Source of the DNA: an uncultured Lachnospiraceae bacterium
GTDB lineage: Bacteria > Bacillota > Clostridia > Christensenellales > UBA1242
Direction of reading: 5' to 3'
DNA length: 61,026 nt
Assembly: GCA_964489405.1 (NCBI GenBank)
Contig: CAZAYL010000003.1
Location: 1 to 61,026, forward strand
Shown here: in pieces, positions 2,675 to 47,601 of the stretch
How positions within the stretch are numbered: the stretch's first letter is position 1
Layout of the letters: the number at the start of each line of letters is the position of its first letter
Notes under the pieces: generated by a model
The model's database searches: none
Seen by the model: only the letters and a program-made list of their open reading frames with translations
What the model was told of the DNA's origin: nothing
Translations under genes and position numbers: made by a program

Positions 2675-2703
2675 TTGACTTTGTTTTGCAAAAATTATAT
2701 AAT
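2675..2703 (+). promoter_or_regulatory. Sigma-70-like promoter consensus (TTGACT-17-TATAAT), function uncertain
   Basis: TTGACT at 2675-2680, 17-nt spacer, TATAAT at 2698-2703. It sits immediately upstream of the hairpin at 2712-2739 and ~340 nt upstream of the CDS at 3042. Confidence 0.35.
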
Positions 2704-3041: not shown

Positions 3042-3944
3042 ATGAGCAAGAATAAAACAAAGGAAAGGAAGCCTTTTGAATTCACAAAGAAAAGCATTAT
3101 TGCACTAATCTTTGTGTCAATAGCAGGCATTATGAGTGGCATATTTGTTGGCGGGTTCTTCATCGGAGCACCACAAGTTGACTATTCGCAATATAACGAA
3201 GCGGAATTGCGCGACGACACTAAATCTCTTTCAAAGAACGCTAATGGTAAAAGTCCGTCATCATACAAGGCATATGAGATTTTTGAAATAGCTGAAGAGC
3301 GAATGATTACACACGGGAATGTGTACGCGTATGGTACAGGGGTCGTAAAGAACTCTTTTGCTGACCAAAAAGTTTCTAGTACCAAAGCGTATGAAAATGG
3401 ACGCTATTTCAAGGAGAGTGTCAGTAAGGGGTTAAAGAGCGTCGGCGAGCGCGACTATTATGACGAGGGGAGCAATAGCATTCACTATTATTCAGGTTCG
3501 GGTATAACTGAGGAGTTGACCGCCACGTGGAAAGACAAAGGCGAGATTACACTTGATAATTTCAAAGAAACAAATGGCGTACAAATTACATCATTCATTC
3601 CGTATATTGTATCAAGCAAAACTGTTCTAAACAAAAGTGCAACACCCAAGGAAATTACTTTAGAAGACGGCAGTAAGGCGTATGAAATAGTCGTTGAACT
3701 TGACGCGATTTTGAGTGTGCTTAACTACGTCAAACAAATGAAGAATATTTCACAATTGCCAAGTTATCCAACATTTGAGTCAATTACACTCACTTGCGTG
3801 ATTGACGAAACATTTAGATTTATTTCAATTGACACAATTGAAAAATACACTGTCAATTATATGGGTGTCAATGCAAGTTGTACGGGTACACTTAGAGAAG
3901 ATTTCACATATGGTAAAAATGATTTTATTCCTGTTTCAGGATGA
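3042..3944 (+). CDS. Membrane-anchored hypothetical protein (N-terminal TM helix, extracytoplasmic body)
   Basis: 300-aa ORF with an AAAGGGGA Shine-Dalgarno upstream. Basic N-terminus followed by a TM helix (IIALIFVSIAGIMSGIFVGGFFIG). I recognise no family. The TGA stop lies 19 nt before the giant gene, so they are probably co-transcribed. Confidence 0.7.
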   Translation: MSKNKTKERKPFEFTKKSIIALIFVSIAGIMSGIFVGGFFIGAPQVDYSQYNEAELRDDTKSLSKNANGKSPSSYKAYEIFEIAEERMITHGNVYAYGTGVVKNSFADQKVSSTKAYENGRYFKESVSKGLKSVGERDYYDEGSNSIHYYSGSGITEELTATWKDKGEITLDNFKETNGVQITSFIPYIVSSKTVLNKSATPKEITLEDGSKAYEIVVELDAILSVLNYVKQMKNISQLPSYPTFESITLTCVIDETFRFISIDTIEKYTVNYMGVNASCTGTLREDFTYGKNDFIPVSG

Positions 3945-3963: not shown

Positions 3964-6900
3964 ATGAGAAAATTTTTTGTATATTTTTTGACATACATCG
4001 TTATGTTGATGTCAGGTGTGGGCGGGGTATTTTTGTTTACCAACCACACTTCGCCCGCACGGCAAGTGCAACAAGCTGACTCATCGGCTTTTGATAAGGT
4101 CGTCAGCAATATAATGAACGCCAAGGCGCTTACAGCGGGCGGAGAGTTTGTCATCAAAGAGAATGGAACGCAATTTGCAAATGTTACGCTTAGTGTTCGA
4201 ATGGATTTGGTGGACGGTTTCACTAAATTTAACCTTGCAGGTGCGATAAACATTGAGCGCGACGGCAATAATCTTGCAATTGATTTTGCGTACATCGATA
4301 GCAAAATATACGTTGACCTTTTGGGCGCAAAATATCAAGCAACAATGGATGATATTGGCGGGCTTATCAAAGTTGTGAGTGCTTCGCTTTCAAGTGTTTT
4401 GCCTGAAGTCGATATCGCAAGTATGCTTGACGTCAATGCGCTAATGCTTTTGATGCAAAATGTTACCGAAGAGAAAGGCGAAAATGAAATTTTGTTGAAG
4501 ATGAATACATCGGGTGGGGATATTGTTATAAAGACCGACCTTGAATACAATATTCAAAGTGTCGATATTCCAAAACTTGTGTTTGGAGAGTTTACAATTG
4601 ACCCAAATGTTGCACTCGAAACAAAAAGTGCATTGATAGGACTTGAAAAACCTAAGGATGAGAGTTTATACGCAGAAGCGTCGAAGCAATTTGTTGTTTT
4701 GACAGCGCTACTCAACACAGTGCAGACGCCTTTTGTTGCAAAAGTTAATATATTAGGGCAAGAAAGCGATTTAATTTACGACAAAACAAATGCGTCATTG
4801 TCGTCAAAAATCAATGGAAATGAATTAAAAATTACATATTATAATAATTGCGTCTATGCAAATTTTGGCACATTTGGAATTAAGTGTGATAGCGGTGACT
4901 TTGATACATTAAAAGAGTTTTTTAGTGATAAAATTGATTTTGAGCAACTTACAACGCACACAATCGTGGCAACAATGATTGAAAAAATCAAAGCAATTGA
5001 TTTTTCACGCTTAACCCTTGAGTTTTTGAACCAAATAGTCGTCGATGAGAATGGCGGACTGACATTTGAATGTAATGATTTTGCATTAAATATTCAATCT
5101 TACCAATCTAAAATCACGAAAGCGGTTGTTGTGTACAAAGGGTATACATTAGAGAGTGAGTTTAGTTATACAAATGTTCCGCAAGTAAAGGTACCAAGTG
5201 TCAAATATTTGTCAGCAACAAATGTCCTTGACCTAGCAAATGCTATGGCACAAACTGCAAAATCAAACGATGTGAATGCAAACATAGATTTGGTAGTTGG
5301 CGAATACTTGCTAAATGTAAATATGTGCTATGCCTTCAACAGTGGAAATATATATCTAAATCTATCAACCCAAATTGGCGAAAATGATTTTGATATCACA
5401 TACCAAAATGGCGTTGCATATGTTTCATACCAAGGAATAAAAATCAAAATTACTGAACAAACAATCAAAGATTTGATGACTGAATTTAATCTTGATGGCA
5501 AATTTGATAACATCGAAAGTATAATAAACAAGATGAGAAACATCAATCTTGACACAGTTACATTAAACAGTATCAAGCAAATGTTCAACATCAACTTGAC
5601 AAAAGAACAAAAACAAGCAATTTTGGCAGTAGCACAAACTGCACTTAACGTACTTTCGAGCACTACACTTGGAATGAATAGCGACATTTTGTCTGTTATT
5701 AGCGGAGATTTTGACGCAAATATTGAACTCAATGACGGCAAAATTAGCAATTTGTCAATAAAGTATAAAGAGTATTCAATTGAATCAAAATTTGAATATG
5801 TTTCATTTGAGCAAAAGACAATCGAAATTGATGAATACATTGACGCAATGCAACTTGCAAGGGTGGCAAAGAATTTTATTAGTTCCGCAAAAGATGGAAT
5901 ATTTGCGACATTTGTTGCCAATTATGAAGACGTCAGCATAAGCGGACAAATTAATGTAATTAGCAAGGACATCGAGATTTCGGCGGTCGCAACATATGGG
6001 GAATATACAGCAAATATCGCATTTGTCAATGATGTTGTGTATGTTTCAGCACTTGGTGCAAAAGTGAAGTTTGCGCTCAGTGATATTGATAAAGTTCAAA
6101 ATTTATTAAACACGCTCAATGTGTCAATGCCACAAATGCCAAATGTGTCTATCGACGCAAACGCAATTTTGGGTGTCGTCAATAAATTGTTCCTTGCATA
6201 CACATCAGATAAAATAAGCGCAAATTATGAAGATTATGCCGTTTCGCTCAATATTGAAAATAACAACATCAGTGGCGCAAAACTATGCGAAAATGGCGCG
6301 GAAATACTAGCAATCGACTTTTCCACAACCCGCAACGAAATAAGTGTTGCTAATCCTTGCGAATATCTTGACATAACGGAGTTATTCCCACTTGTCGAAC
6401 CTATTATAAACACAATTAGTTCAAACAATTTTAGCGGAACAGCTGTATTGAAAGTAAGTTTGAACAACCAACTTGTCGAATTTAATATTGACTACAAAAT
6501 TTCAATTGTGGATGGAGAAATAAAAGCAAACGCTATAGTTACTGCATACGGAATTACAATCGACATAACATACTTAGATAACGTAATATATATAAAGGCA
6601 GGGAAACTTGCTGTTAACGCAAAAATTAGCGAATTAGATAAAATTGTGGAATTTGTCGAAAATAATTTTGGGACAATCAGCTCACAACTATCGACTATTA
6701 GTGCGGTAAACATTACTGACATACTGGGAATGGTAACAAGCGCACTAAGCGTCAGCGACTTAAGTTTTGTCAATACAATTGATGTTTTAAACAATAGCGC
6801 ATTTATCCAAATCGGAAAAATTGGTTTAACACTCGAATTTGATACAGCGATTACGGGCGTCGAAATTGAAATAACAGATTTAGATATAAGTGAAATAAGT

Positions 6901-9900
6901 ATTGACAGTTTGAATTTTGCAACATCAATTAACACGAGTGCAGTTGTTATTGCAAACTCTTTGTGCGAATATGTCGACATCAATGACATTTTGTCTGTTG
7001 CAAATAGCGTAATTGCAACGGCAAAAAGTAACGCGGTCAGTGGACAAATCGACCTACAACTTACGGATGGAGTTGTTCCAATCGACGGCATAACCAGCAA
7101 AAACTTGCACTTTGTCATAAACTATAACTATAGTTACAACGGCGGGAATATCAAGTTTGACGCAAATACCGAACTTTTGGGCAATACACTCTCAGTTGTG
7201 CTTGTCGATAACGTGGTTTATATTGCATACCAAGACATCAATGTTTATGCAACGCTCGAAAGTTTTGGCAAAATTGATTTAAATGCCGAAATTTCGCAAC
7301 AACAAATTATTGAATATGTAAAACTTGCAATTTCAAGCATTTCGCTATCGTATGACAATGATACTTTGATTGTTTTGGGCAAAAATCTTGCAAAACTCAA
7401 TAGCGCAAAAATCAGTATTACAACCGAAAACAGCGAGCTTACAAATGTTTCGCTCACTTGCGACTATGCCTCTATAAATATTACATTTGCTCTAACAGAG
7501 AATTATAATGATGTTACATTGAAAGAAAACTATATAGAAGCAGAGAATATTGTTGAACTTGTCAAAAACATTATTGACGCAACAACACAAAGACACGTGT
7601 TTGCCGAAATTGATTTGAATATTGGAGAATATTCAATTAGCGGACTTGTAAATTATAGCGAAAACAATTTACAAGCGCAAATTTCGACGCAAATATTTGG
7701 TAAAAATCTCGATGTTAGACTACTCGAAAACACTATTTATGCAAACTTTGACGGAATGAAAGTTAAGTTTGCACTTAGCGACATTAACAAGGTTGTTGAA
7801 CTTATAAATAGGGCGCTTGGCGACACGCAATCAAAAATGCCGAATGTTGACATTAACATCGACAAAGCAGTCATTACAAAATATTTGAAAGCATTGCGTT
7901 TAGGTTATGACGGCAACAAAATAACCACAAAAGTTTCAAACTTTGATTTGAAAGATTTTGGACTCAATGTTAGTAGTCTTGACCTTTCAAAAATTGGCAT
8001 AGAATATACCAAATTTGCAAGCGGGGAATTAAATATTGTTGTCGATTGCAAAAACAACACACTAAACGGAGTATGTGTTTCAGTCAATGATTACGCAAAT
8101 GTCAATGTGAAATTCGAAAATACTCCTTGCAACATCAATCAAAGCACAAGCGGATATTTTGATATAATCGCGTTCTTACCATTTGTTGAGCCATTTATCG
8201 ACGGCTATTTATCTGGGATGTTTGGAACAATGACCATATCAGCCCCGCAGATAGAAAAAGTCGCAAGCGAACTTGTCGTTGACTATGCTTTCAATGCAGG
8301 CGCAATTCAATTAAATACAACAATTCTTAATCAAAAAATTGGCGCAACATTGAAAGATAATATTATATATCTTGAAATTAGTGGACTAAAATACAAGTTT
8401 GGCATCAATGAAATTGATGATATCATCGACTTAGTATGTCGTGAGTTTGACATTACAATCAACAAAACAATGGAAGATGAATTCTCGCTTGACAATATCA
8501 ATTTTGGAGATATCGGTTTTGAACTTTTGAATGATAAAAACTTGCAAATTACATACAAAAATTTGACTTTGCTTTTGAGTATTGAGAAAGGGTTTGTCGC
8601 AAGTGTCGAATTTGACGATGTAGCAGTTTCGCTCACGCAAAAAGTCGGCGCAAAGGCAATTACACTTGAAAGTGCGGACAAATATTTGCCGATATTTGGT
8701 GCGATTGAAAAAGCAAGTGCAATCTATTCAATTATAAGTGACGGCAAAGTGTCATTCGACCTAGATTTTACATACGATACAATCAAAGTTACTGGGAATG
8801 CAAGTATTGACTATAAAACGGTTATGCAGACCAAAAACATTTCTGACCTAAAAATTAGTGCAACACTTGTTGCGTTCGAAAAATCTGTAAATATCGATTT
8901 GCAAAACAATGTATTATATGTAAACTTTGACGGAATAAAAGTGAAATTTGCACTCAGCGATATTGATACAATGCTTGAGTGGCTTGAAAGTGAATTTAAT
9001 GTTAAAATTGACACAAACGCCAATGTTGACATCGACTTTAAAACGCTACTTAAATCAATTTGTCAAAGCGATCAAAATATAATGAATATTGAAACAAGTT
9101 TGCTAAGCGCAATACTTACATTTGAAAATAACGATATTCAATCAATATCTGTCAACTATGACAAAATTAGCGCAAAAATTGCAATCACAAACAATTTTGA
9201 AATTCGCAACATAATTAGCGAAAATTACAGCAATGTTGTCGATTTATTGCCGGTATGTAGCAAAATTTTGCAGGTATACTATACAAAATCGATTGCACTC
9301 GATGCTGAAATTAGCGCAAAATTGTTAGGGTACGACCAAATATTTGACGCAAGCATAAGCGTTGATTACAGCGATAAAATCAAAATTGATTTAGTTGCCG
9401 AATTTAAAGGACTTACTGCTACTATTTATGTGCGTGGAAGTACAATTTATGTTGACTTTGCAAATCTAAAAATACAATTTGTTGAAAGTGATTTATTGCA
9501 AATAGTTGACTTTGCGAATCGTAACTTTGGCGCAAATTTGATTGCACCAACCGAAAGCGGAATTGAAGGAAATATGGTTGTCGACTTTGTCAACAAAAAC
9601 TTTAACTTGGGTTTTGAACTCCCATATTTGGGGGATATAAACACAAAAGCAAAAGACATAAATCTTGACCAAATCATCGATACAATTAAAAAATTCGATT
9701 TCTCAACATTCGGAACATTTACATTGAATGATAATAAATTTGATATGAACATCAGTACAGGTTCAATCAGTCTTGACCTTGCCAAAATTCTAGACGTTGT
9801 TGTCGATTTTGAAGAAGTTAGAGCCAATGCTTCAATCATTGCAACAAGTGAAGCAGTCAAAATCGTACAAATCAATGGGAAAGATTATGCTACAGTTGAT

Positions 9901-12900
9901 GAATTGTTAAATACAATTCAGTGCGTCATCGACACCCTAAACACACAAAGATATACAGTCAGCGCAAGCACGCAAGTATATAATGGGCAAACAAAGCGTT
10001 TTGACGGTTCAATCAAAGCAAGTCTTGATATAAGTGGAGAGCAAAAATTGTTCCACGGCGTCGCAACACTTAACGGCGAACAAGATATTTCAGTTACGCT
10101 TGACTTTGACGGCACGTATATTTATGTCAACTATAGTGGACTAAAACTCAAAATTCATAAAACAAACATCAAAGAAATCGCGGGCATTGTTATGGCAGTG
10201 TTTGGATATGATATTAATAGTTTGGGAATCTTTGGAGATGTAGATTTAGGTAATTTAAACTTTGACAACTTCCAAAACGCAATGCCAAACATCGACCTTG
10301 GTGACCCATTCGCAATGCTCAAACTTGTACAAAGCATAAAATATTCAAATGGCGCGCTAACAATCAACCTCGACGGCAAGAAAATCAGTGGAAATACCAA
10401 CGCGCAAACAATGACGCTTAATATCAGTACAGCAAACGGCGAACTCAGCCATTTTGACCTTAATAATATGTACACAGGCGTTACATCAAGCGAATATTTC
10501 AATCTCAATATTGATTTTGTTGACTATGCGGGCGTTCCAGCCGTTTCGGGTACCTACTTTGATATTAGCAGTATCAGCCAATTGCTTAAAGGGGTTATCA
10601 ATACGTCAGAACTCAACGACTACCACATTACCGCTACACTTGATATCAAAATGACAATTATAGGAATAGATATTGACTGGAATATACCAATTGATATTCA
10701 AATCAAACTTGTCAATAAACGCCCAGTGATTAAAGCTGTCATTGGACCTATGCCGTCAGTCGAAGGTGTGAATAATGATGTTAAATTCATAGTGGGAGAT
10801 TGGGTAGACGGGATATATAAGTCAAAAGATAGATATATCAATATCTACTATCTAGATGAAAATGTTTATATTCACAGGACGGAAAATGTCGCAAAAACAC
10901 TAAATAGAACGCGCCTATATGAAAAGAAAACAATGGTTCATTACACAACATTCCTTGATAACATAATGTATTACGTGCAGTATATGACAGGGTTCACGGA
11001 CTCAATTATGAGCGCAATCAATGAATCAATGGAAAAAGCAAAAAATAGAGAAAATCCAATCGATATGGGCAACGTTTTACTAGACTATAATAATGATAAC
11101 GGCAACTATAACCTAAAACTCAATTTGAAAGAAATTTCAAATGATGAAAAACTTGATTCAATCGCAATTAGCATTAAACCATCATTCGTTGAGTCGGCGC
11201 AAAAAGAATACGTAACCGACCTAACAATGCAAATGGTAATGCCACTTGCAGACGGCGTCAATATGAATCTTGAAAGCAATGATATGAAACTCATTGACAT
11301 CGGCGAAACACTTGACCTAAGTAGCGTCTATAACTATGCAAATTCATACACCTATGCCGAAGGCGCAGAATGGACGGCTAGCGAAAGTGATTGGGAATGT
11401 CAAAAAACAGTTTCATACACAATGAGTTTTGAAACAAACGGCGGAGCAAGTGTCGCTAATATCACATGCGCACCGAGTTCAACAATCAGTTTACCAACCT
11501 ATGCAAATCGTGAAGTTGTTTCGGGCAACACCAAAACGACGTATCGCTTTGACGGTTGGTACACGAGCGAAACGTTCGACGACGGCACAAAATTTGACAG
11601 CAATAAAATGTCGCGTCAAGATATAAAGTTATACGCAAAATGGACTGAAATTGCACGTGTCAATATGTACACAATCAACTTTGTTACAAACGGTGGTGCA
11701 AGCGTTTCAAACATCAACCAGTATGAGGGTTATGCAATTAATTTGCCAACCTACGATGACCGAATTGAAATAACGGACACCGAAAAAACGACCTACCGCT
11801 TTGTCGGTTGGTATACAACAGAAAACTTTGACGAAAGCACAAAGTTTGAATTAACATCAATGCCAAGCGAAAGCGTAACCTTGTATGCTAAGTGGGAAGT
11901 TGTCAGTAACTACCAAAAACAAATAATCAACTTTATCGACGGTGACCAAGTTATTCGTACAATTTCAGGTTTCTACGGCGATGAAATAACGCTTTCAAGC
12001 CTAGAAAACAAGGAAATTTCGACAGAAACATCATATGAACTCTATGAGTTTGATGGGTGGTTCAAATCAAGTGCATATGAAATTGAAACATTGTTTGAAA
12101 GCAATTTAATGCCAAACGAAAGTTTTGATTTGTACGCAAAGTGGAATTTGATAGTTTCAAATCAAACCTTGACATTATTTGACGGCGGGAGCACAATTTC
12201 AACAATCAAAGCTAATGTTGGAGAAACAATTTCTTTGCCAATTTATCAAACACAAGTTATCGACAATATAACAAATCATACGAGAATAACGCGCACATTT
12301 GTGGGCTGGTTCACAACTCAAAATTTTGCGGATGGAACAATTTTTACAGCAACACAAATGCCGATATCGGGAATGTATCTCTATGCTAAATGGGATGAAA
12401 AAGTTGAAACAATCTATTCCGTCAAAATCACAAATGCAGGGACAATAGTGTACAATGAAATTGTGCTTAGTGGTACAACTATAGCAATGAATACTATTGA
12501 CGGCTACAAAGATTCAACACTTGTCTACTCAAGCGCAAATTTTGCGGAAAATACAAAGGTTGAGAATTTCACAATCTCAAATGATAGCGCGTGGTATTTG
12601 AGAAATAAATTTACTATCAATGTTTACTCCAAATACTCATCAAGTTTGAGTGCTACTTATTCACAAACATATGAATTGTATGAGGGTTCAAGCGTAACAT
12701 TACCGTCATTCTCAATGCTTTCAACAAATTGGGGTTCCTATACGAGTGAATATACATTCGGCGGGTATTCATTCAATAACACAGCCATAAAAGCCGGCAC
12801 AGTAACAACACCAAACGGTAATTGCACATACATCGCAATTTGGACTGAAACGCAATGGTGCACAGTCACGTTTGACGTGAACGCGTGGACAAAACCAAGT

Positions 12901-13191
12901 TGGTGGAGTATAAGCAAATGGTGCAAATCTCCTACAGATATTTCATCGGTTTCAAATACAAGTAATAATCAAATTCGTATTAAACGCGGAAGCAGTTTAA
13001 ATACAAGTAATTATGTTGCTACTTGTAAATGTAAATATGCTGTAACTTATAACTTTATTACTGAAGCGTGGACAACTGATTCTAGTGCTAAGAACTTGAA
13101 TTGGGCAAAGGGTTCTAACAATAGTTATGATGCTAAAGTAATAACTATCAACAGCAATTGCACCTTAAAACCTGTTTGGAAAGAAAAATAA
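3964..13191 (+). CDS. Giant (3075 aa) N-terminally anchored surface protein: ~12 divergent ~180-210-aa modules, then C-terminal Listeria-Bacteroides repeats
   Basis: Uninterrupted 9.2-kb ORF. N-terminal TM helix (FFVYFLTYIVMLMSGVGGVFLF). A recurring module ends in [VI]Y[VA]xxxGxK[VIY]K[FI] followed by a helix-like SDIDKVxxLL segment (IYVDLLGAKYQ, AYVSYQGIKIKIT, VYVSALGAKVKFALSDID, IYANFDGMKVKFALSDIN, LYVNFDGIKVKFALSDID, IYVDFANLKIQFVESD, IYVNYSGLKLKIHKTN and others). Listeria-Bacteroides repeats lie at nt 11416-12849. There is no LPXTG or other C-terminal anchor. Confidence 0.9.
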   Translation: MRKFFVYFLTYIVMLMSGVGGVFLFTNHTSPARQVQQADSSAFDKVVSNIMNAKALTAGGEFVIKENGTQFANVTLSVRMDLVDGFTKFNLAGAINIERDGNNLAIDFAYIDSKIYVDLLGAKYQATMDDIGGLIKVVSASLSSVLPEVDIASMLDVNALMLLMQNVTEEKGENEILLKMNTSGGDIVIKTDLEYNIQSVDIPKLVFGEFTIDPNVALETKSALIGLEKPKDESLYAEASKQFVVLTALLNTVQTPFVAKVNILGQESDLIYDKTNASLSSKINGNELKITYYNNCVYANFGTFGIKCDSGDFDTLKEFFSDKIDFEQLTTHTIVATMIEKIKAIDFSRLTLEFLNQIVVDENGGLTFECNDFALNIQSYQSKITKAVVVYKGYTLESEFSYTNVPQVKVPSVKYLSATNVLDLANAMAQTAKSNDVNANIDLVVGEYLLNVNMCYAFNSGNIYLNLSTQIGENDFDITYQNGVAYVSYQGIKIKITEQTIKDLMTEFNLDGKFDNIESIINKMRNINLDTVTLNSIKQMFNINLTKEQKQAILAVAQTALNVLSSTTLGMNSDILSVISGDFDANIELNDGKISNLSIKYKEYSIESKFEYVSFEQKTIEIDEYIDAMQLARVAKNFISSAKDGIFATFVANYEDVSISGQINVISKDIEISAVATYGEYTANIAFVNDVVYVSALGAKVKFALSDIDKVQNLLNTLNVSMPQMPNVSIDANAILGVVNKLFLAYTSDKISANYEDYAVSLNIENNNISGAKLCENGAEILAIDFSTTRNEISVANPCEYLDITELFPLVEPIINTISSNNFSGTAVLKVSLNNQLVEFNIDYKISIVDGEIKANAIVTAYGITIDITYLDNVIYIKAGKLAVNAKISELDKIVEFVENNFGTISSQLSTISAVNITDILGMVTSALSVSDLSFVNTIDVLNNSAFIQIGKIGLTLEFDTAITGVEIEITDLDISEISIDSLNFATSINTSAVVIANSLCEYVDINDILSVANSVIATAKSNAVSGQIDLQLTDGVVPIDGITSKNLHFVINYNYSYNGGNIKFDANTELLGNTLSVVLVDNVVYIAYQDINVYATLESFGKIDLNAEISQQQIIEYVKLAISSISLSYDNDTLIVLGKNLAKLNSAKISITTENSELTNVSLTCDYASINITFALTENYNDVTLKENYIEAENIVELVKNIIDATTQRHVFAEIDLNIGEYSISGLVNYSENNLQAQISTQIFGKNLDVRLLENTIYANFDGMKVKFALSDINKVVELINRALGDTQSKMPNVDINIDKAVITKYLKALRLGYDGNKITTKVSNFDLKDFGLNVSSLDLSKIGIEYTKFASGELNIVVDCKNNTLNGVCVSVNDYANVNVKFENTPCNINQSTSGYFDIIAFLPFVEPFIDGYLSGMFGTMTISAPQIEKVASELVVDYAFNAGAIQLNTTILNQKIGATLKDNIIYLEISGLKYKFGINEIDDIIDLVCREFDITINKTMEDEFSLDNINFGDIGFELLNDKNLQITYKNLTLLLSIEKGFVASVEFDDVAVSLTQKVGAKAITLESADKYLPIFGAIEKASAIYSIISDGKVSFDLDFTYDTIKVTGNASIDYKTVMQTKNISDLKISATLVAFEKSVNIDLQNNVLYVNFDGIKVKFALSDIDTMLEWLESEFNVKIDTNANVDIDFKTLLKSICQSDQNIMNIETSLLSAILTFENNDIQSISVNYDKISAKIAITNNFEIRNIISENYSNVVDLLPVCSKILQVYYTKSIALDAEISAKLLGYDQIFDASISVDYSDKIKIDLVAEFKGLTATIYVRGSTIYVDFANLKIQFVESDLLQIVDFANRNFGANLIAPTESGIEGNMVVDFVNKNFNLGFELPYLGDINTKAKDINLDQIIDTIKKFDFSTFGTFTLNDNKFDMNISTGSISLDLAKILDVVVDFEEVRANASIIATSEAVKIVQINGKDYATVDELLNTIQCVIDTLNTQRYTVSASTQVYNGQTKRFDGSIKASLDISGEQKLFHGVATLNGEQDISVTLDFDGTYIYVNYSGLKLKIHKTNIKEIAGIVMAVFGYDINSLGIFGDVDLGNLNFDNFQNAMPNIDLGDPFAMLKLVQSIKYSNGALTINLDGKKISGNTNAQTMTLNISTANGELSHFDLNNMYTGVTSSEYFNLNIDFVDYAGVPAVSGTYFDISSISQLLKGVINTSELNDYHITATLDIKMTIIGIDIDWNIPIDIQIKLVNKRPVIKAVIGPMPSVEGVNNDVKFIVGDWVDGIYKSKDRYINIYYLDENVYIHRTENVAKTLNRTRLYEKKTMVHYTTFLDNIMYYVQYMTGFTDSIMSAINESMEKAKNRENPIDMGNVLLDYNNDNGNYNLKLNLKEISNDEKLDSIAISIKPSFVESAQKEYVTDLTMQMVMPLADGVNMNLESNDMKLIDIGETLDLSSVYNYANSYTYAEGAEWTASESDWECQKTVSYTMSFETNGGASVANITCAPSSTISLPTYANREVVSGNTKTTYRFDGWYTSETFDDGTKFDSNKMSRQDIKLYAKWTEIARVNMYTINFVTNGGASVSNINQYEGYAINLPTYDDRIEITDTEKTTYRFVGWYTTENFDESTKFELTSMPSESVTLYAKWEVVSNYQKQIINFIDGDQVIRTISGFYGDEITLSSLENKEISTETSYELYEFDGWFKSSAYEIETLFESNLMPNESFDLYAKWNLIVSNQTLTLFDGGSTISTIKANVGETISLPIYQTQVIDNITNHTRITRTFVGWFTTQNFADGTIFTATQMPISGMYLYAKWDEKVETIYSVKITNAGTIVYNEIVLSGTTIAMNTIDGYKDSTLVYSSANFAENTKVENFTISNDSAWYLRNKFTINVYSKYSSSLSATYSQTYELYEGSSVTLPSFSMLSTNWGSYTSEYTFGGYSFNNTAIKAGTVTTPNGNCTYIAIWTETQWCTVTFDVNAWTKPSWWSISKWCKSPTDISSVSNTSNNQIRIKRGSSLNTSNYVATCKCKYAVTYNFITEAWTTDSSAKNLNWAKGSNNSYDAKVITINSNCTLKPVWKEK
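11416..12849 (+). repeat. Protein-level tandem Listeria-Bacteroides repeats (4 clear, about 2 degenerate) inside the giant gene
   Basis: YTMSFETNGG...TYRFDGWYTSETFDDGTKF...LYAKWTE; YTINFVTNGG...TYRFVGWYTTENFDESTKF...LYAKWEV; ...YEFDGWFKSSAY...LYAKWNL; ...RTFVGWFTTQNFADGTIF...LYAKWDE. Weaker copies follow, ending in ...YIAIWTE. Confidence 0.85.
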
Positions 13192-13346: not shown

Positions 13347-13506
13347 AAAACAAGTTTATGGCAAAATGTTTGTTTCAATATTATTTACACATAGCGCACA
13401 ATATAACCAAACTCATTGTGTAAATGTGCATAAATAGTGCAAAATATAATGACATCACGTGTAAATTATTTCAAAAACAATTTTTGCGAACCAAATGGAA
13501 GGGAAA

Positions 13507-14172
13507 ATGTTAAAAATCGAAAATTTATCATATAAAGTCGAAAATCAAGAAATACTAAAAGGTATCGACTTTGAGTTTGAAAAAGGAAAATTTTATGTAA
13601 TTACGGGGCACAACGGGGCTGGCAAGTCCACACTTGCAAAATGTCTTATGGGGCTATATAAAGCGGACGGCAAAATTTTACTAAACGGGCAAGACATAAC
13701 AAACAAGTCAATTGATGAGCGCGCCCACTTAGGAATGGGCTTTGCGTTTCAACAACCAGTTACATTCAAAGGCGTTAGGGTTATTGATATACTAAAAATT
13801 TCGGGTAAAAAATTCCCCGACTTTGAAAACGTATTGCAACGAGTTGGACTTGACCCCGCCGAATATTTGTTTCGTGAACTCAACGCAACTCTTTCAGGTG
13901 GCGAACTCAAACGCATTGAACTCGCAAGTGTCTTACTTCGCGACATATCTGTTGGCATATTCGACGAACCCGAAGCAGGTATTGACCTTTGGAGTTTTAA
14001 CAACCTTAGCAACGTGTTTTCAGAATTTCGCAACAGTGAAAGAACAATGATTGTAATTAGCCACCAAGAAAGAGTTATGAAACTCGCCGATGAAATCATT
14101 TTGATGCAAAATGGCAAGATTGAAAAATTCGGCGCACGCGACGAAATGTTAGGAAAACTAAACACTGATTAA
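13507..14172 (+). CDS. sufC: Fe-S cluster assembly ATPase SufC
   Basis: Walker A GHNGAGKST, ABC signature LSGGELKR, Walker B IFDEPEAGID, H-loop SHQ. The N-terminus MLKIENLSYKV aligns with SufC N-termini (E. coli MLSIKDLHVSV). The ORF-track start at 13495 is 4 codons upstream and is also possible. Confidence 0.85.
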   Translation: MLKIENLSYKVENQEILKGIDFEFEKGKFYVITGHNGAGKSTLAKCLMGLYKADGKILLNGQDITNKSIDERAHLGMGFAFQQPVTFKGVRVIDILKISGKKFPDFENVLQRVGLDPAEYLFRELNATLSGGELKRIELASVLLRDISVGIFDEPEAGIDLWSFNNLSNVFSEFRNSERTMIVISHQERVMKLADEIILMQNGKIEKFGARDEMLGKLNTD

Positions 14173-14246
14173 AAAATTCAGCTTGTAAGCGCACATACAG
14201 CGTATATATATGGCAAGGAATAATTGAATATATAATAAGGAATAAT

Positions 14247-15173
14247 ATGATTAAAGATATTGAAAAAATAAAAACTGAAATTCTGCAAAAAATTGCGGAT
14301 ATCAAAGAGTTCCCGCAGGGCGCACACAACTTGCGTCTTAACGGAAAGGGTGTCGAACGAGTAAATTCGCAAAACATCGAAATCATACCAAAGAAAGATG
14401 GAACAGGTATTGACATCTTTGTTGCGCCCAACACAAAAAATGAATCTGCATACATTCCCGTCATCTTAACCGAGAGCGGACTTCACGACATAGTGTATAA
14501 TGATTTTCATATTGGACAAAACGCCGACGTCGTCATCGTCGCAGGTTGTGGCATTCACAACGACGCCGAATGTGATTCATCGCACAACGGCATACATACG
14601 TTTTACATTGAAAAAGGCGCACGCGTCAAGTACATCGAAAAGCACTATGGGCAAGGTGTTGGACAGAAGAACCTCAGCCCACTCACGCAAGTATATCTTG
14701 ACGAAAACGCAACAATGATTATGGACACTCTACAACTCGAGGGCGTTGACTATGCCGTTCGTACAACAAAAGGCGAACTTAAGGACAAAGCTACGCTTAT
14801 TGTCAATGAAAAGATTTTGACTCAAAACGCGCAATTTGCGTCTTCTGTGTTTGATGTTAAGCTTTTCGGAACAACTGCGTCTACAAAAATAACGTCGCGC
14901 GCCGTTGCAAAAGACGACTCAAAGCAAGAGTTCCACTCCAATGTTACAGGGACGTGTGAGTGCTTTGGGCACGTCGAGTGCGATGCAATTTTGATGAACA
15001 AAGCGCAAATAATCGCGATTCCACAAATTTCTGCACTTTCAAGCGACGCGCAACTTATCCACGAAGCCACAATTGGCAAAATCGCGGGCGCACAACTAGA
15101 AAAATTGCTCACGCTCGGATTAAATGAAAAAGAAGCAGAAAATTTTATCATCAACGGATTCTTGAGTATATAG
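14247..15173 (+). CDS. Short-form SufB/SufD family Fe-S cluster assembly protein
   Basis: 308 aa, directly downstream of sufC. The C-terminal HEATIGKIAGAQLEKLLTLGLNEKEAENFIINGF matches the conserved SufB/D C-terminus (E. coli SufB [34 protein letters not shown]). Confidence 0.8.
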   Translation: MIKDIEKIKTEILQKIADIKEFPQGAHNLRLNGKGVERVNSQNIEIIPKKDGTGIDIFVAPNTKNESAYIPVILTESGLHDIVYNDFHIGQNADVVIVAGCGIHNDAECDSSHNGIHTFYIEKGARVKYIEKHYGQGVGQKNLSPLTQVYLDENATMIMDTLQLEGVDYAVRTTKGELKDKATLIVNEKILTQNAQFASSVFDVKLFGTTASTKITSRAVAKDDSKQEFHSNVTGTCECFGHVECDAILMNKAQIIAIPQISALSSDAQLIHEATIGKIAGAQLEKLLTLGLNEKEAENFIINGFLSI

Positions 15174-15303: not shown

Positions 15304-16131
15304 ATGGCATTCAATTTTATAGCAAAGCAAGAAGATATTTTCAAAATTTTAATGTCTGAACGCGAAAAAGCGCGCATAAGCACCGAAGCAACTAGAGATT
15401 CATTTGAAGTGTTGGACGAAATAAAGAAGAAAGAAAAAACAATTTTACCAACAACAATAGAAACGCTAGACGAATATTATCGTACCAAAGGCGCAAACAA
15501 ATTGTTGGAATACATTTTAGTTGCCGACGAATTGTACATAATTTGCAACCAATTTTTGTCGTTTGCAACAGTTACGCACGAAGAAATGGAGAAGCTCAAT
15601 AGACAAATAAGCATAAGGTTCAAAATGTATATGGATTATCCGCTTACCCAACGAGAAAAAGACGAGTATATTCCATTTGAAATGCAAGACCTAAACGAAA
15701 TGTTAAGATATATCTATGTTTGGGATATAGACCACGCGCTTATGCCACGAATGCGTTGGATGGACGGAACAAAATTATTTGACAGCAATTTTGGCAAAGA
15801 AGGAGTAATGGAACTTTGCGAAAAAGAAGGGCACGGTGGCTATGTTAGAAGTGTGAGAGAGAAATTCAAAGAAGCAACTAAACAAGCGACTGATTGGATG
15901 AACAATACATTTTTCAAACACTGGGAAATTTTAGCCTACAATATGGAACAACTTAACACAGTAATGGAGTATACACCTATCCACTCGTGCGATTATGACG
16001 ATGGTTCCCGCGCGCCTATCGGTTACCCTGAGGACAAACAATATTATGGAAAATGTTATGGAGAAATGGCAGAAGAATACAGAAATAAAATTAGAAAACA
16101 AAGAAGTCAAGAACAAGGGAGAGAAATGTAA
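15304..16131 (+). CDS. Hypothetical cytoplasmic protein
   Basis: 275-aa ORF with a good SD and promoter. No TM segment and no family I recognise. Its stop overlaps the next start (TAATG at 16129-16133). Confidence 0.65.
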   Translation: MAFNFIAKQEDIFKILMSEREKARISTEATRDSFEVLDEIKKKEKTILPTTIETLDEYYRTKGANKLLEYILVADELYIICNQFLSFATVTHEEMEKLNRQISIRFKMYMDYPLTQREKDEYIPFEMQDLNEMLRYIYVWDIDHALMPRMRWMDGTKLFDSNFGKEGVMELCEKEGHGGYVRSVREKFKEATKQATDWMNNTFFKHWEILAYNMEQLNTVMEYTPIHSCDYDDGSRAPIGYPEDKQYYGKCYGEMAEEYRNKIRKQRSQEQGREM

Positions 16132-16343: not shown

Positions 16344-17051
16344 ATGGCTGAAAATAATGAAGATTTGAAGAAAAAAGAAGAAGCAAATTTTTTTGATGAA
16401 GAAAGAATAATTAATGATAGCGCGCAAAATAAAAACAATAACAGCGACGACAGCGGAGTAGGCGATTCAAATACAAATGAAGCAACGCAAGTTGCGGAAA
16501 AGCAAAATGATGATGGAAATTCACCTGATGTTAAAATTAGCGATGGCGCAGACTCGACAGATGAGAAAGATACAAAAGAAGTGTCGGAATCTGAAAAGTC
16601 GGATGATGCAGTACCAACAGTGGAATCTTATGTTCCAGAACCAGAACCTGAAGAAGAATTATCGGAACCTACAAATGAGTTTGCGGATAATTTTGACGCC
16701 AAAAGCAAAATTAATTTGAATACATACAAGAAAAAAACAAAATCAAAAAAACCAATTAGAAATTTCATTGCCGAAGTGTGCGATATGAAAGGCTACAAGA
16801 AAGCGGACAATGAAAGAAGGAAAAAAGAAGGTAAGCCAGAAATCAAGATGTCAAAAAAACTCGCAGCTGCAAATCTTATTTGGTTGGGAGCAAAAATTAC
16901 TGTTGCTTGTACCGTTTTCGGACCAATTGTGGGGTGTTGGCTTGCTATGCATTACACCAATCACGAATTTGCAACTAGAGTTGAACAAAAAGCAGTAAAT
17001 TTTGGTAAATTCTTTACTTCATTAGAAGGTGGCAAAGGTCCATCTAGATAA
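16344..17051 (+). CDS. Acidic low-complexity protein with a C-terminal TM segment (hypothetical)
   Basis: 235-aa ORF with a GGAGG SD. The N-terminal ~110 aa are D/E/S/N-rich, followed by a K-rich linker and a hydrophobic helix (LAAANLIWLGAKITVACTVFGPIVGCWLAM). Confidence 0.6.
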   Translation: MAENNEDLKKKEEANFFDEERIINDSAQNKNNNSDDSGVGDSNTNEATQVAEKQNDDGNSPDVKISDGADSTDEKDTKEVSESEKSDDAVPTVESYVPEPEPEEELSEPTNEFADNFDAKSKINLNTYKKKTKSKKPIRNFIAEVCDMKGYKKADNERRKKEGKPEIKMSKKLAAANLIWLGAKITVACTVFGPIVGCWLAMHYTNHEFATRVEQKAVNFGKFFTSLEGGKGPSR

Positions 17052-41216: not shown

Positions 41217-43445
41217 ATGAATAATTTTGAGAATGAATATGTCGAAAATAACATAAACTTAATCGACACTCACCCAGAGATTTTAGCACCCGCAGGTGAT
41301 TTAGAATCATTGAAAGTTGCAGTTTATAATGGTGCAGACGCCGTATATTTTGGGTTGCAAGCGTTCAATGCACGTAGCAAAGCACAAAATTTTACGCTTG
41401 ATAACTTGTCCGATGTTGTAGACTTTTGCCACTTGTTTGGAGTTAAGGTGTATTTGACCGTCAACACTTTGATAAAAGATAGCGAACTTGACGAAGTCCT
41501 TGACCTTGTTCGCCAAAGTTATCAAAAGCACGTCGACGCCTTTATCATTCAAGACTTGGGGCTTGCAAGAATTTTGAAAAAACATATTCCCGACATCGAA
41601 CTGCACGCCAGCACACAAATGGGTATCCACAACCTTGAAGGTGCATTGATTGCCGAAGAAATGGGGTTTAAGCGCATTGTACTTTCGCGCGAAGTAACAC
41701 TCAATGACATCAATTTGATAAAGGCGTGGACAAACCTTGAGGTCGAATATTTTGTTCAAGGTGCACTTTGTGTTTCATTTTCGGGCAATTGTTATTTTAG
41801 CGCACTTAAATTTAACAAAAGTGGTAATCGTGGGGCGTGTTTACAACCTTGTAGATTGAAATATCGCGCTAGCACAAAAGGGGAATATAAATATCTGCTG
41901 TCACCACGCGACCTATGTTTGATAAATAGGCTAAAACAATTAGCAGATATCGGAGTTGATTCGTTCAAAATTGAGGGACGTATGCGTAGACCCGCATATG
42001 TTGCGCAAGCTGTGCAATCCTATCGTAGTGTTATTGATTCAAATTATAATGAAGAAGTGTGCAAGTTTGAGGAAAACAATCTAAAGCGTGTTTTTAATCG
42101 CGGGGAGTTTAACGAAGGAATATACTTAGACAATATTCGCGATCAAAATATAATTAATAAAGAATATCAAAATCATAGAGGCGTGAGCATTGGACAAGTC
42201 GCGAAAGTCGAACGATTCAAAGATATTTTCGCAATTTTGATTGAAACAAAACAGAGCATAAACAATGGAGACGGCTTGAAATTTATTCTTGATAATGGGA
42301 ATGAATTAAGTATTGGTGTAGGCGGTGTGGAAAAAATCAATGACAAATTGTATCGTGTCTATACAAAGAAAAGTCCAAATGTCGGCGACACAGTTTACAA
42401 AACCGTGGACTCTAATTATGAAAATTATTTAGTTAGCAACACAAATCGATTGACAATCAAGGCACATTTTGAAGCGCACCCCGATGAACCTGCAAAACTC
42501 ACTATGACATTTGGCAAAATTTCAGCCCAATGTGAGTCAATGTTTGTGTGTGATAAAGCACTTAATCAAGCACTTACGCGTGAAAAAATATTGCAAAATA
42601 TCAATAGATTAAATGATACACCTTTCGAATTAGGTTCATTCACTTGCAATCTTGGAGAAGTTTTTATTCCCGCATCAAGAATAAACGAACTCAGACGTAT
42701 GTGTGTCGACGCACTCTATAAGAAGATCGTTAAATCAAACGAAAAACCGATTCGAAAATTAGTGCGCGATTCAGTCAAACTCCCTAAAATAAATGAGAAA
42801 AACAAAAACAATTTTGCAATTATTGATGACATCAATCAAATTAATGAAATATCAGAACAAACAAACATAATTTTCGCACCAAGAATATATGATTATGAAA
42901 AAATCAATGAATGTTTACTAAAAGCGAATGAAAAAGACCACGATTTTATATACCTAAATTTACCAAATGTTGCTAATTCGTACGACATTCAACGCATTAA
43001 AAATATTTTGACTGAAATAGGGCAAGAAAACATCGGAATTGTTGCAAATAATATATATGCACTTTGTTTTACAAAGCTTGGATTTAAAACATTGATTGGA
43101 TATCAAATGAATGTAACAAATTTATGCACTATGCAAGTTTTGCTTGATATGGGGGCCGAAGCATTTACTAAGTCAATCGAGAGTGAACTCAGTTGCAAAT
43201 TGTCAATCGGGCATAATTATGTTGGCAAGCCAACAATGATGACATTCTGTCATTGTCCTTATAAAACCATCTATGACTACAATTCTTGTAAAGATTGCGA
43301 TTTTCACGATGGACTATATTACCAAGCGGAAGACAACAACTCATACTACATACGTAGAATACAGTGCAATTCTTGTTATTTCGAGCTTGTTTTTAATGAA
43401 AAAATCGGGCAAGAAAACGGTTGCGACGTAATAGATTTACGCTAA
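41217..43445 (+). CDS. Peptidase U32 family protein (long, 742 aa)
   Basis: PEILAPAGDLESLKVAVYNGADAVYFGLQAFNAR, EYFVQGALCVSFSGNCYFS and FKIEGRMR motifs are typical of the U32 family. The C-terminal extension is Cys-rich. Confidence 0.88.
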   Translation: MNNFENEYVENNINLIDTHPEILAPAGDLESLKVAVYNGADAVYFGLQAFNARSKAQNFTLDNLSDVVDFCHLFGVKVYLTVNTLIKDSELDEVLDLVRQSYQKHVDAFIIQDLGLARILKKHIPDIELHASTQMGIHNLEGALIAEEMGFKRIVLSREVTLNDINLIKAWTNLEVEYFVQGALCVSFSGNCYFSALKFNKSGNRGACLQPCRLKYRASTKGEYKYLLSPRDLCLINRLKQLADIGVDSFKIEGRMRRPAYVAQAVQSYRSVIDSNYNEEVCKFEENNLKRVFNRGEFNEGIYLDNIRDQNIINKEYQNHRGVSIGQVAKVERFKDIFAILIETKQSINNGDGLKFILDNGNELSIGVGGVEKINDKLYRVYTKKSPNVGDTVYKTVDSNYENYLVSNTNRLTIKAHFEAHPDEPAKLTMTFGKISAQCESMFVCDKALNQALTREKILQNINRLNDTPFELGSFTCNLGEVFIPASRINELRRMCVDALYKKIVKSNEKPIRKLVRDSVKLPKINEKNKNNFAIIDDINQINEISEQTNIIFAPRIYDYEKINECLLKANEKDHDFIYLNLPNVANSYDIQRIKNILTEIGQENIGIVANNIYALCFTKLGFKTLIGYQMNVTNLCTMQVLLDMGAEAFTKSIESELSCKLSIGHNYVGKPTMMTFCHCPYKTIYDYNSCKDCDFHDGLYYQAEDNNSYYIRRIQCNSCYFELVFNEKIGQENGCDVIDLR

Positions 43446-43491
43446 AAAAATAATTAGCAAATAGATACATCTAAAAAACGTTTAAATTCAA

Positions 43492-43522
43492 AAAAATCGC
43501 GTACAATATCGACGCGATTTTT
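43492..43522. terminator. Bidirectional intrinsic terminator between convergent genes
   Basis: AAAAATCGCG (43492-43501) / CGCGATTTTT (43512-43521). The A-run and T-run flanks would serve both the U32 gene (+) and the 43610-44332 gene (-). Confidence 0.7.
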
Positions 43523-43609
43523 TGTGTAAAAAACATATGTTAATAATTTTAAAAAATATTTATAATTAATTTAAATGAGATACTTACAGCTATTGATTAA
43601 TGTAAATAC

Positions 43610-44332: not shown

Positions 44333-44449
44333 AAATTCTCCTTATTTACTTTATGATTTTTTTAATATTTTATGATGCTATATTATAACATATTTTTTTA
44401 AAATTGTATTGTAATTTAACACATATTTTTATAATTTTTTGCGCTTACA

Positions 44450-45172: not shown

Positions 45173-45266
45173 TCTTACTCCAATTATTGTAATTATATCA
45201 AAAAAATGCAAAAATTACAAATGAATAATAACAAAAATATCAACATATAAATTTTATGAGGTTTAT

Positions 45267-46271: not shown

Positions 46272-46332
46272 AATTTGCGTAGTGTATATATATTCAAATT
46301 GTGTCAATAATAGCATTTAGAGGTAGAAGATA

Positions 46333-47445: not shown

Positions 47446-47601
47446 CTTTCTAAAATTTAAATATATTTCTTATTATTGCGTTAATATATTTGACTTTTGG
47501 TGCCGATTTTTGATAAACTTAAAAAAATATATAAAAATATAATTTTTATATTGTTTTGTTTACTAATTTTATAATTGCATAAAATACAAAAGAGGTTCAG
47601 T

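Follow-up and report, generated by a model that had tools for sequence, protein, structure and literature searches.

The window analysed here, a 61,026-nucleotide stretch of AT-rich DNA (~35% GC), contains an intact open reading frame (ORF) encoding an uncultured gut Clostridia protein of 3075 aa, and raises the question of what a protein of this size is built from and what it would do for the cell. The reading that we prefer, with a probability of roughly 0.5, is that this gene (3964-13191) and the gene directly upstream (3042-3944) encode one cell-surface apparatus, a length-variable fibril in which a spacer shaft would hold a cap and binding repeats outward. The ORF is kept intact in at least 15 species-level genomes, and full-length orthologues are 22-71% identical to the giant protein. 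Most of its length consists of a repeated module, which the module HMM does not find in the second giant ORF of the window (47575-60873) or in the ORF at 30-1250.

3964..13191, + strand: giant ORF, 3075 aa, intact, with full-length orthologues
3973..4041 (aa 4-26), + strand: putative N-terminal signal-anchor FFVYFLTYIVMLMSGVGGVFLFT, after MRK, read from the sequence
4024..4572 (aa 21-203), + strand: module 1, HMM i-E 7.6e-28
4588..5133 (aa 209-390), + strand: module 2, i-E 4.4e-22
5140..5763 (aa 393-600), + strand: module 3, i-E 1.2e-31
5770..6288 (aa 603-775), + strand: module 4, i-E 2.4e-37, KVKFALSDID at nt 6061
6304..6906 (aa 781-981), + strand: module 5, i-E 9.9e-39
6901..7458 (aa 980-1165), + strand: module 6, i-E 2.3e-27
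7465..7995 (aa 1168-1344), + strand: module 7, i-E 2.9e-41, KVKFALSDIN at nt 7759, in the three-module AF2 model
8092..8616 (aa 1377-1551), + strand: module 8, i-E 3.6e-32, in the three-module AF2 model
8617..9156 (aa 1552-1731), + strand: module 9, i-E 2.6e-32, KVKFALSDID at nt 8938, in the three-module AF2 model
9157..9816 (aa 1732-1951), + strand: module 10, i-E 2.5e-29
9811..10464 (aa 1950-2167), + strand: module 11, i-E 2.5e-33
10492..11400, + strand: cap, comprising the divergent module 12 (aa 2177-2403, i-E 2.1e-25) and a ~76-aa extension (aa 2404-2479)
11404..12399, + strand: four Flg_new (Listeria-Bacteroides) repeats, Pfam PF09479 and TIGR02543, borders from a family-specific HMM
12400..13188, + strand: C-terminal 263 aa with 11 W, 6 C and weak degenerate Flg_new-like repeats (repeat HMM)

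An iterated 183-position HMM finds exactly 12 contiguous modules that tile aa 21-2403 (i-E 4e-22 to 3e-41), with no room for linkers between them; a 32-aa insertion (aa 1345-1376) lies directly behind module 7. Comparison of the orthologue-alignment profile with itself (hhalign) gives off-diagonals at ~182, 370, 568, 760, 954, 1142, 1353 and 1518 aa with E values of 1e-75 to 1e-10, far above chance, and the periodicity for which the initial annotation had asked for a self-comparison is thus real. Profile methods were used because the repeats are too diverged for BLASTP, which finds no internal match in the giant protein at 1e-3. The module duplications are old, since paralogous modules within the protein now share only 8-28% identity and little DNA-level repeat is left in the gene (a single 48-nt stretch, 88% identity). 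The tyrosine of the recurring motif falls at aa 116, 298, 486, 693, 876, 1086, 1259, 1469, 1652, 1829, 2054 and 2302, each 1-2 residues or less from the 12 positions first listed by eye, and the partial alternation of short and long spacings described at the same time is also recovered (range 173-248 aa, with a series of 207/183/210/173/210/183). The three KVKFALSDI copies begin at aa 700, 1266 and 1659 (nt 6061, 7759 and 8938) and differ synonymously, as expected from the earlier remark that their DNA had diverged. A strict regular expression for the motif finds 2 copies and a looser version 7. A two- or three-module super-repeat inside the giant protein was considered and rejected, mean identity being flat across module offsets (16-18%). 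Few positions are kept across modules, namely the Tyr preceding helix 1, the strand 5-6 hairpin Y..G.K.K and the start of helix 2, and we read these as structural; conserved positions in the connector region are I113, F124, I134 and D138. The strands alternate hydrophobic and polar residues, giving one hydrophobic and one polar face, as expected of a two-layer alpha/beta domain.

Sequence searches leave the module without a known family, in line with the initial annotation. Pfam and NCBIfam searches of the whole giant protein return Flg_new as the sole match and nothing on the modules, a per-module Pfam scan of 92 modules gives none above the curated cut-off and a single weak LppX_LprAFG match (E 0.0035), and no module falls within the LolA clan of Pfam (LolA, LolB, LppX_LprAFG, MucB_RseB and others). 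A PDB sequence-profile search with the module stays at chance level, the best match being a DsbA-like protein (E 0.0046). Structure prediction is more informative. The AF2 model of a single domain, aa 620-794, which is the structural domain of module 4, has a pLDDT of 90.9 and a pTM of 0.79, and modules 7-9 modelled together reach a pLDDT of 79.9 and a pTM of 0.60, which in our judgement exceeds the value expected of freely jointed domains. The three-module alignment was built from non-overlapping triples, overlapping pieces being aligned by MAFFT staggered by identity and out of register. DSSP assigns to the aa 620-794 model a helix (9-25), six strands (27-85), two helices (86-98 and 113-122) and five strands (124-168); modules 8 and 9 show the same order of elements, and module 7 is less clean.

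This arrangement corresponds to the LolA fold, an 11-stranded antiparallel sheet in which strands 1-6 and 7-11 are separated by a long connector (the 'lid', L7) between strands 6 and 7 (PMC6363788); the AF2 module model likewise has 11 strands split 6+5 with a long strand 6-7 connector. Foldseek searches with the module models match LolA, LolB, RseB, LprG and ependymin (EPDR1) at probability 1.00 (E 1.5e-5 to 1e-3), and almost all confident matches belong to the LolA superfamily, drawn from five of its families. Sliding-clamp and OspA matches (probability 0.3-0.8, TM ~0.1) were set aside as generic long-sheet similarity. Against solved LolA-like structures the TM scores are 0.32-0.51 (best, LprG 3mha) at an rmsd of 7-10 Å, so that the predicted topology fits the superfamily and the geometry fits only loosely. 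Among its members (LolA, LolB, LprG/LppX, the RseB N-domain, VioE and ependymin/EPDR1), the modelled module shares the 6+5 sheet, the overlying strand 6-7 connector and the N-terminal helix, but its connector consists of two helices where known members have a loop; furthermore, known members are soluble proteins or lipoproteins of one or two domains, whereas here 5-18 are chained and membrane-anchored. On these models the fold of the module is known and its sequence family is new. The early impression of a LolA/LppX-like half barrel, as opposed to Ig/FN3 domains, is thus supported by the predicted 11 strands (6+5) and three helices, and the accompanying suggestion of a new repeat fold is dropped in favour of the known LolA topology.

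An exhaustive HMMER search (E<=1e-3) places the module in ~812 clusters at 50% identity. The 160 family representatives looked at are 1240-6215 aa long with 5-18 modules each, and the family seems to have a broad distribution among MAGs of uncultured gut Clostridia and Christensenellales-like bacteria, with human, rodent, rabbit and ruminant hosts, at a genome cost of ~9 kb per copy. Of the family proteins looked up or retrieved, none is named in any source, and a full-text literature search found no paper on tandem arrays of LolA-like domains. In P0007, a three-module block is duplicated at 81% identity, which suggests that module number shifts by block duplication in relatives. Across the family the orientation is the one first proposed, with an N-terminal anchor and a distal C-terminus. 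In the giant protein, an uncharged hydrophobic stretch of ~22 residues (aa 4-26) directly follows the MRK start and by inspection appears to be an uncleaved anchor, being over-long for a typical signal peptide and without an AXA-like site; most of the 160 representatives also begin with a basic and then a hydrophobic segment. A whole-protein motif scan finds no LPXT[GAN] motif and a Pfam scan no SLH, choline-binding or other anchor domain, as already noted for this single intact ORF with its N-terminal transmembrane (TM) segment.

The anchor end also includes a second protein, encoded immediately upstream.

2675..2703, + strand: putative promoter TTGACT-17-TATAAT, 11/12 in a consensus scan, in the 410-nt gap ahead of the partner gene
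3042..3944, + strand: partner gene for a 300-aa protein anchored by an N-terminal TM segment; 19 nt separate its end from the giant ORF

In 16 related loci the partner directly precedes the giant gene, and in 35/160 family representatives it is fused to the giant's N-terminus in the order TM-partner-modules (for example, aa 1-299 of P0015, E 1e-34), which together place it at the membrane-proximal end. The unit takes in the upstream 300-aa gene as a fused or split partner. Searches of Pfam, NCBIfam and PDB sequences give no match for the partner (PDB profile matches are at chance level), and it is not a solitary copy of the module (module HMM E 0.08; hhalign probability 0.2%).

At the other end, the cap is the best-conserved region of the protein, with 84-90% identity to the closest orthologues P0002 and P0003, 64-71% to P0004 and 50-54% to P0007 and P0008. 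Middle modules have the lowest conservation when compared with more distant orthologues, and module 1 is the best conserved of the first ten modules against P0005, P0006 and P0008. A cap HMM identifies the cap as the last module in 112/160 representatives; the sequence beyond it ranges from 0 to 2600 aa, some proteins stopping right at the cap. Here it begins with the four Flg_new repeats (aa 2481-2562, 2565-2646, 2649-2729 and 2730-2812 by the family-specific HMM), which match PF09479 in 4 stretches at E 2.5e-36 and scores of 97.5-124 bits (cut-off, 27) and TIGR02543 at 70.7 bits (cut-off, 20.95). Tails of 16 diverse members contain Flg_new in 7/16 and LRR_5 (BspA), MG4 and GldD_lipo in 1/16 each. 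Repeats of the Flg_new and LRR_5 types are common in surface proteins, and we know of no established ligand for Flg_new repeats. The C-terminal 263 aa have no Pfam match, and the repeat HMM aligns to aa 2880-2962 (i-E 3.9e-4) and to two marginal stretches, which agrees with the description of the tail as degenerate and repeat-like; of the 8 W and 5 C first counted in the last ~110 aa, the cysteines are correct and the tryptophans number 7. In P0005 to P0008 the tail region is aligned across only 4-5% of its length. Conservation thus peaks in the cap and not in the Flg_new repeats or the W/C-rich tail, which is optional in the family. The distal end, made up of the cap, four Flg_new repeats and the degenerate tail, contains no established adhesive domain, and the wall-binding domains SLH, LysM, CWB2 and choline-binding were not detected in the giant protein or in the 16 diverse members. 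The tips of host-binding adhesins usually vary, and the conserved distal cap therefore suggests a conserved ligand, perhaps one of the bacterium's own.

In the fibril reading, the small membrane-anchored product of 3042-3944 would form a base beneath the giant protein, itself a type-II (N-in, C-out) membrane-anchored fibril. Its shaft would consist of 12 LolA-superfamily-like alpha/beta half-barrel domains stacked head-to-tail into a rod, almost without linkers, each composed of a helix, six strands, a helical 'lid' connector and five strands. The shaft would be above all a spacer, longer or shorter according to module number, and would place the conserved cap (module 12 with its ~76-aa extension) past the wall, tens of nanometres away from the membrane; in this lineage the four Flg_new repeats and the degenerate Trp/Cys-rich tail would also be held distally, binding a target. 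Because some members stop at the cap, tail presentation is not a universal function. Fibrillar adhesin-like proteins have a stalk of tandem repeated domains and an adhesive domain distal to the anchor (PMC8286594), and the 12 modules (5-18 in relatives) form a tandem array of this kind. Sortase-anchored fibrillar adhesins (Cna, SasG and Rib-type) and the giant protein are alike in their very long chain, their tandem array of a single domain type, a length that varies with repeat number and terminal binding-type repeats opposite the anchor. They differ in that the giant's unit is a ~180-aa alpha/beta LolA-like half barrel in place of an Ig-like or other beta-sandwich stalk domain, that the polarity is reversed (N-terminal TM anchor, distal C-terminus and no LPXTG), that the cap at the distal end is conserved, not variable, and that there is a dedicated base partner. 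With Listeria-Bacteroides (Flg_new/InlB B-repeat) proteins the giant shares the four canonical repeats (aa 2481-2812), but these are a minor optional appendage here, and aa 21-2479 are unrelated to those proteins.

The fold itself suggests another use. All characterised LolA-superfamily members bind hydrophobic ligands (PMC6363788), and a purely structural role would thus be unusual. Every module might then keep a lipid pocket, the chain relaying lipids, lipoproteins or glycolipids from membrane to surface or acting as a multivalent scavenger of environmental lipids, an explanation that we consider rather unlikely. The near-exclusive Foldseek matches to LolA, LolB, LprG, RseB and ependymin point this way, as do the 6+5 split with a helical connector in place of the 'L7 lid' (PMC6363788), the several conserved positions that fall in that connector and the tail-less members, which imply that the array has a function in itself; however, TM scores to real lipid carriers are low, and LolA-clan profiles fail on all but the one weakly matching module of 92. 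Interior modules that are so divergent, with few conserved positions and a number varying from 5 to 18, suit a spacer more than they suit a tuned relay. A MacB/LolD-type ABC pair adjoins relative P0039, but this is 1 of ~22 loci, and a conserved association with transporters was rejected. A presumed monoderm Clostridia cell also has no obvious acceptor membrane. The specific version in which the array, with its membrane base partner, hands hydrophobic cargo from module to module through the wall, as a LolA-derived counterpart of bridge-like lipid-transfer proteins, is more doubtful again. The likeness to those proteins (AsmA/TamB/YhdP and VPS13) is at the level of concept, in that the giant is large and N-terminally anchored, repeats beta-rich units of a lipid-handling fold and could span the envelope. 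It has no AsmA, TamB or DUF490 Pfam match, its predicted unit has 11 strands and three helices with a polar outer face as opposed to a five-strand open groove, and its hosts are presumed to be single-membrane.

The array could also be an envelope tether or ruler, with its base in the membrane, its cap bound to the cell's own wall polymer, S-layer or sheath, and its module number setting the spacing between layers. We regard this, too, as an improbable account. It is consistent with a cap that is the most conserved and always terminal module, suggesting a self-derived ligand, with a conserved base partner, with changes of length in discrete steps and with close-clade synteny with housekeeping genes outside any mobile or variable region. 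Yet many members continue past the cap into long, variable tails that reach 2600 aa and contain Flg_new or LRR repeats, for which outward binding is the better fit, and the wall-binding domains named above were not detected. A last possibility, that chance or the composition of this low-GC ORF produced the repeats, or that it is not a genuine gene, as the blank BLASTP self-comparison and the GC content might suggest, is refuted by the hhalign self-matches (E 1e-75), the 12 HMM domains (E<=4e-22), the intact orthologues, the synonymous motif differences and the confident AF2 models, and is given almost no weight.

The known role of the LolA fold is that of a single-domain carrier or sensor of hydrophobic ligands, and a tandem LolA-like array would be a new use of it. 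Module, cap and base partner are three unannotated families suited to Pfam, and the split or fused partner and the conserved cap offer concrete entry points for experiments. If the array is a stalk, as in the fibril reading, surface fibrils gain a stalk domain of a new and far larger type, with reversed, N-terminal anchoring; if lipids are bound by the modules, these would represent a new route for moving or harvesting lipids through the Gram-positive wall. Outside the close clade, the partner is the only conserved neighbour; within that clade, the giant gene is syntenic between a DUF362 Fe-S protein and SUF-like genes plus the S10 ribosomal operon. The ATPase beside the giant gene in the window is SufC-like and paired with a SufB/SmsB-like protein.

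The repeat array is encoded by a single intact gene:

3964-13191, + strand: giant ORF, intact, 3075 aa

The protein starts with MRK, followed by a hydrophobic, uncharged stretch of 22 residues. Self-comparison of the protein by plain BLASTP gave no internal matches, and repetition at the DNA level within the gene is negligible. Profile self-comparison (hhalign of aa 30-2460, using an alignment of nine orthologues) yields strong off-diagonals at ~190-aa multiples (E 1e-75 to 1e-10), recovering the periodicity proposed in the initial annotation, and an iterated HMM of 183 positions divides aa 21-2403 into exactly 12 contiguous modules (i-E 4e-22 to 3e-41), where about 12 had been counted. The motif Tyr lies at aa 116, 298, 486, 693, 876 and 1086 in modules 1-6 and at aa 1259, 1469, 1652, 1829, 2054 and 2302 in modules 7-12, each within 1-2 residues of the position first assigned; its spacing of 173-248 aa, with partial alternation, agrees with the ~175-250 aa described earlier. 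The three copies of KVKFALSDI said to have diverged DNA do occur at nt 6061, 7759 and 8938, where synonymous differences separate them, and identity among paralogous modules is just 8-28%. An artefact is excluded by the hhalign self-matches, the significance of all 12 HMM modules and full-length relatives in ~15 species-level metagenome-assembled genomes (MAGs). The sole Pfam or NCBIfam matches in the protein lie towards the C-terminus, in four Listeria-Bacteroides (Flg_new) repeats. As first reported, a motif scan detects no LPXTG-type motif, and neither SLH nor choline-binding nor any other anchor domains appear among the Pfam matches; the last 110 aa contain the reported 5 Cys and 7 rather than 8 Trp.

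The view that the modules lie outside known families is borne out. Pfam scans of 92 modules one by one returned noise only, save one LppX_LprAFG match at E 0.0035, and the module profile matched nothing credible among all PDB sequences. AlphaFold2 models were built with divergent paralogous modules as the multiple sequence alignment. Both the three-module model (aa 1168-1731; pLDDT 79.9, pTM 0.60) and the single-domain model (aa 620-794, borders moved so that the domain begins at the helix; pLDDT 90.9, pTM 0.79) predict an N-terminal helix, six antiparallel strands, a two-helix connector and five strands. Nearly all Foldseek matches in the PDB at probability 1.00 belong to the LolA fold superfamily (LolA, LolB, RseB, LprG and ependymin/EPDR1; E 1.5e-5 to 1e-3), with a moderate geometric fit (TM 0.32-0.51, rmsd 7-10 Å). 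The predicted topology agrees with the published LolA fold, in which 11 strands form a sheet of two parts, strands 1-6 and 7-11, connected by a long ‘L7’ lid that lies across the concave face (PMC6363788). Because the topology matches but the geometric fit is moderate, we call the module a new sequence family with predicted LolA-superfamily topology, rather than a new fold or a proven homologue; the giant protein is not recognized by the sequence-family tests for LolA-superfamily proteins. The earlier suggestion of a LolA/LppX-like half barrel is thus supported, but not that of a new repeat fold. Conserved positions comprise a Tyr ahead of helix 1, Y98, G103, K105 and K107 in the strand 5-6 hairpin, and I113, F124, I134 and D138 in the connector. 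Insertions concentrate in the hairpins and connector, and hydrophobic and polar residues alternate along the strands.

Searched exhaustively with HMMER, 1.84 billion representatives yielded 812 clusters (50% identity) that match the module profile at E<=1e-3, of which 332 reach E<=1e-30. The 160 representatives examined span 1240-6215 aa (median 2300) and 5-18 modules, mostly with a basic-then-hydrophobic N-terminus, and continue for 0 to ~2600 aa after the last module. Five relatives (P0010, P0011, P0026, P0049 and P0150) carry an N-terminal region of another kind, ~240-260 aa long, before the first module. No source names the protein for any family member looked up or retrieved. By MAG label, the full-length relatives in the ~15 MAGs are uncultured Clostridia, Christensenella, Eubacteriales or Lachnospiraceae; the gut samples were from humans (Hadza), mice, rabbits and goats. 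That module number evolves through duplication of blocks is directly shown by P0007 (locus L048), which has 15 modules versus 12 in the window protein and holds a three-module block in tandem (aa 937-1525 and 1521-2109; 81% identity over 572 aa).

Conservation is uneven along the protein and highest in a distal cap (aa 2177-2479, comprising module 12 and the next 76 residues), which the initial annotation had missed. The cap is 84-90% identical to that of the closest orthologues, P0002 and P0003 (lower, 64-71%, for P0004), compared with 55-83% for the other modules; against P0007 and P0008, identity is 50-54% for the cap and 22-46% for the other modules. Its profile matches 112/160 representatives, every time as the last module, and some family proteins stop right after it. 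The Flg_new repeats and W/C-rich tail are optional: among 16 diverse members, seven have Flg_new, LRR_5, MG4 and GldD_lipo occur in single members each, and several have nothing recognizable. The 263-aa tail of the window protein weakly matches a family-specific Flg_new profile (best i-E 4e-4).

Neighbouring genes include a partner that the initial annotation had also overlooked:

3042-3944, + strand: partner ORF, 300 aa, own N-terminal transmembrane (TM) helix; stops 19 nt before the giant ORF
13495-15173, + strand: SufC-like ATPase and SufB/SmsB-like protein, both under equivalog cut-offs
15304-16131 and 16344-17051, + strand: two ORFs (275 and 235 aa) flanked by the SUF-like genes and the S10 ribosomal operon
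Locus L050, 21996-24593: LolD/MacB-type ABC ATPase and 630-aa FtsX-family permease, directly downstream of the relative P0039

In 16 related loci, distant ones included, the giant gene is directly preceded by a partner homologue. In 35/160 representatives, including P0015 (L045) and P0096 (L051), the partner domain is fused into the giant protein, after the TM helix and ahead of the first module; aa 1-299 of P0015 match the full partner profile at E 1e-34. This alternation of split and fused forms indicates that the two genes encode one putative functional unit, in which the partner probably sits at the base, next to the membrane. Searches of Pfam, NCBIfam and PDB sequences matched nothing to the partner, and its profile shows no similarity to that of the module. 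A promoter-like site close to the sigma-70 consensus is predicted upstream of the partner gene; downstream of the giant ORF, a scan for intrinsic terminator-like sites came up empty. Gene order in the close clade runs DUF362/4Fe-4S protein, partner, giant gene, SufC-like ATPase, SufB/SmsB-like protein and S10 ribosomal operon; distant relatives have the partner as sole neighbour in common. The SUF-like pair, which looks like a minimal SUF-like Fe-S assembly pair, is syntenic with the giant gene in the close clade only. The MacB/LolD-type pair occurs in one locus (L050) only, and an ABC transporter association is given no weight. The 275- and 235-aa ORFs match nothing in Pfam or NCBIfam.

The architecture comprises a type-II-like N-terminal anchor, a linker-free 12-domain LolA-like chain and a variable middle and tail, and both the base partner and the distal cap are conserved. 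We give about even odds (~0.5) to a surface fibril presenting the cap and binding repeats. This reading is favoured by three spacer-like patterns: interior modules that evolve fast and keep few conserved positions, length varying in discrete steps, and well-conserved ends. Interior modules would serve as a spacer, its length tuned by module number, with the specific work done at the ends. The chain would project from the membrane through the wall and beyond. The superfamily topology has strand 1 next to strand 11, with helix 1 turning back along the sheet, which places domain start and end at opposite ends, perhaps 2.5-4.5 nm apart, so 12 modules would span some 30-55 nm, a rough topological estimate rather than a measurement.

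That the cap is so strongly conserved points to a conserved ligand, which may belong to the cell’s own envelope, as would suit an envelope tether or ruler, a reading we consider unlikely. We are equally doubtful of a lipid-binding or lipid-relay chain, consistent with hydrophobic-ligand binding as the unifying property of the LolA superfamily and with an array functional alone in tail-less members. A LolA-derived lipid conduit or scavenger crossing the wall, of high interest if true, is less probable still; bridge-like lipid-transfer proteins match the giant protein in neither sequence nor unit topology. In overall architecture the giant protein resembles a fibrillar adhesin, but it has reversed polarity, no wall anchor, a large, unprecedented alpha/beta stalk domain, a distal element that is conserved where theirs varies, and a dedicated base partner. 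LolA and Flg_new are absent from the main text of a fibrillar-adhesin survey (PMC8286594), and a full-text literature search found no description of tandem LolA-like arrays.

Other candidate surface proteins are encoded in the window:

30-1250, + strand: 406-aa ORF with Flg_new and Flg_new_2 repeats, at the window edge
45267-46271 and 46333-47445, + strand: two ~350-aa ORFs upstream of the 4432-aa ORF
47575-60873, + strand: second giant ORF, 4432 aa, N-terminal TM-like segment

The first is probably the C-terminal part of another surface protein, cut by the window start. The 4432-aa ORF has zero Pfam matches at E<=1e-3 and does not match the LolA-like module HMM; the two ORFs upstream also lack Pfam matches, and the set may represent an additional unclassified giant surface protein together with partners of its own. 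In the region ~42000-56000, GC skew flips sign near 44 kb and is negative through most of the 4432-aa + strand gene; a replication origin or terminus, or else the composition of this giant gene, could account for the change.
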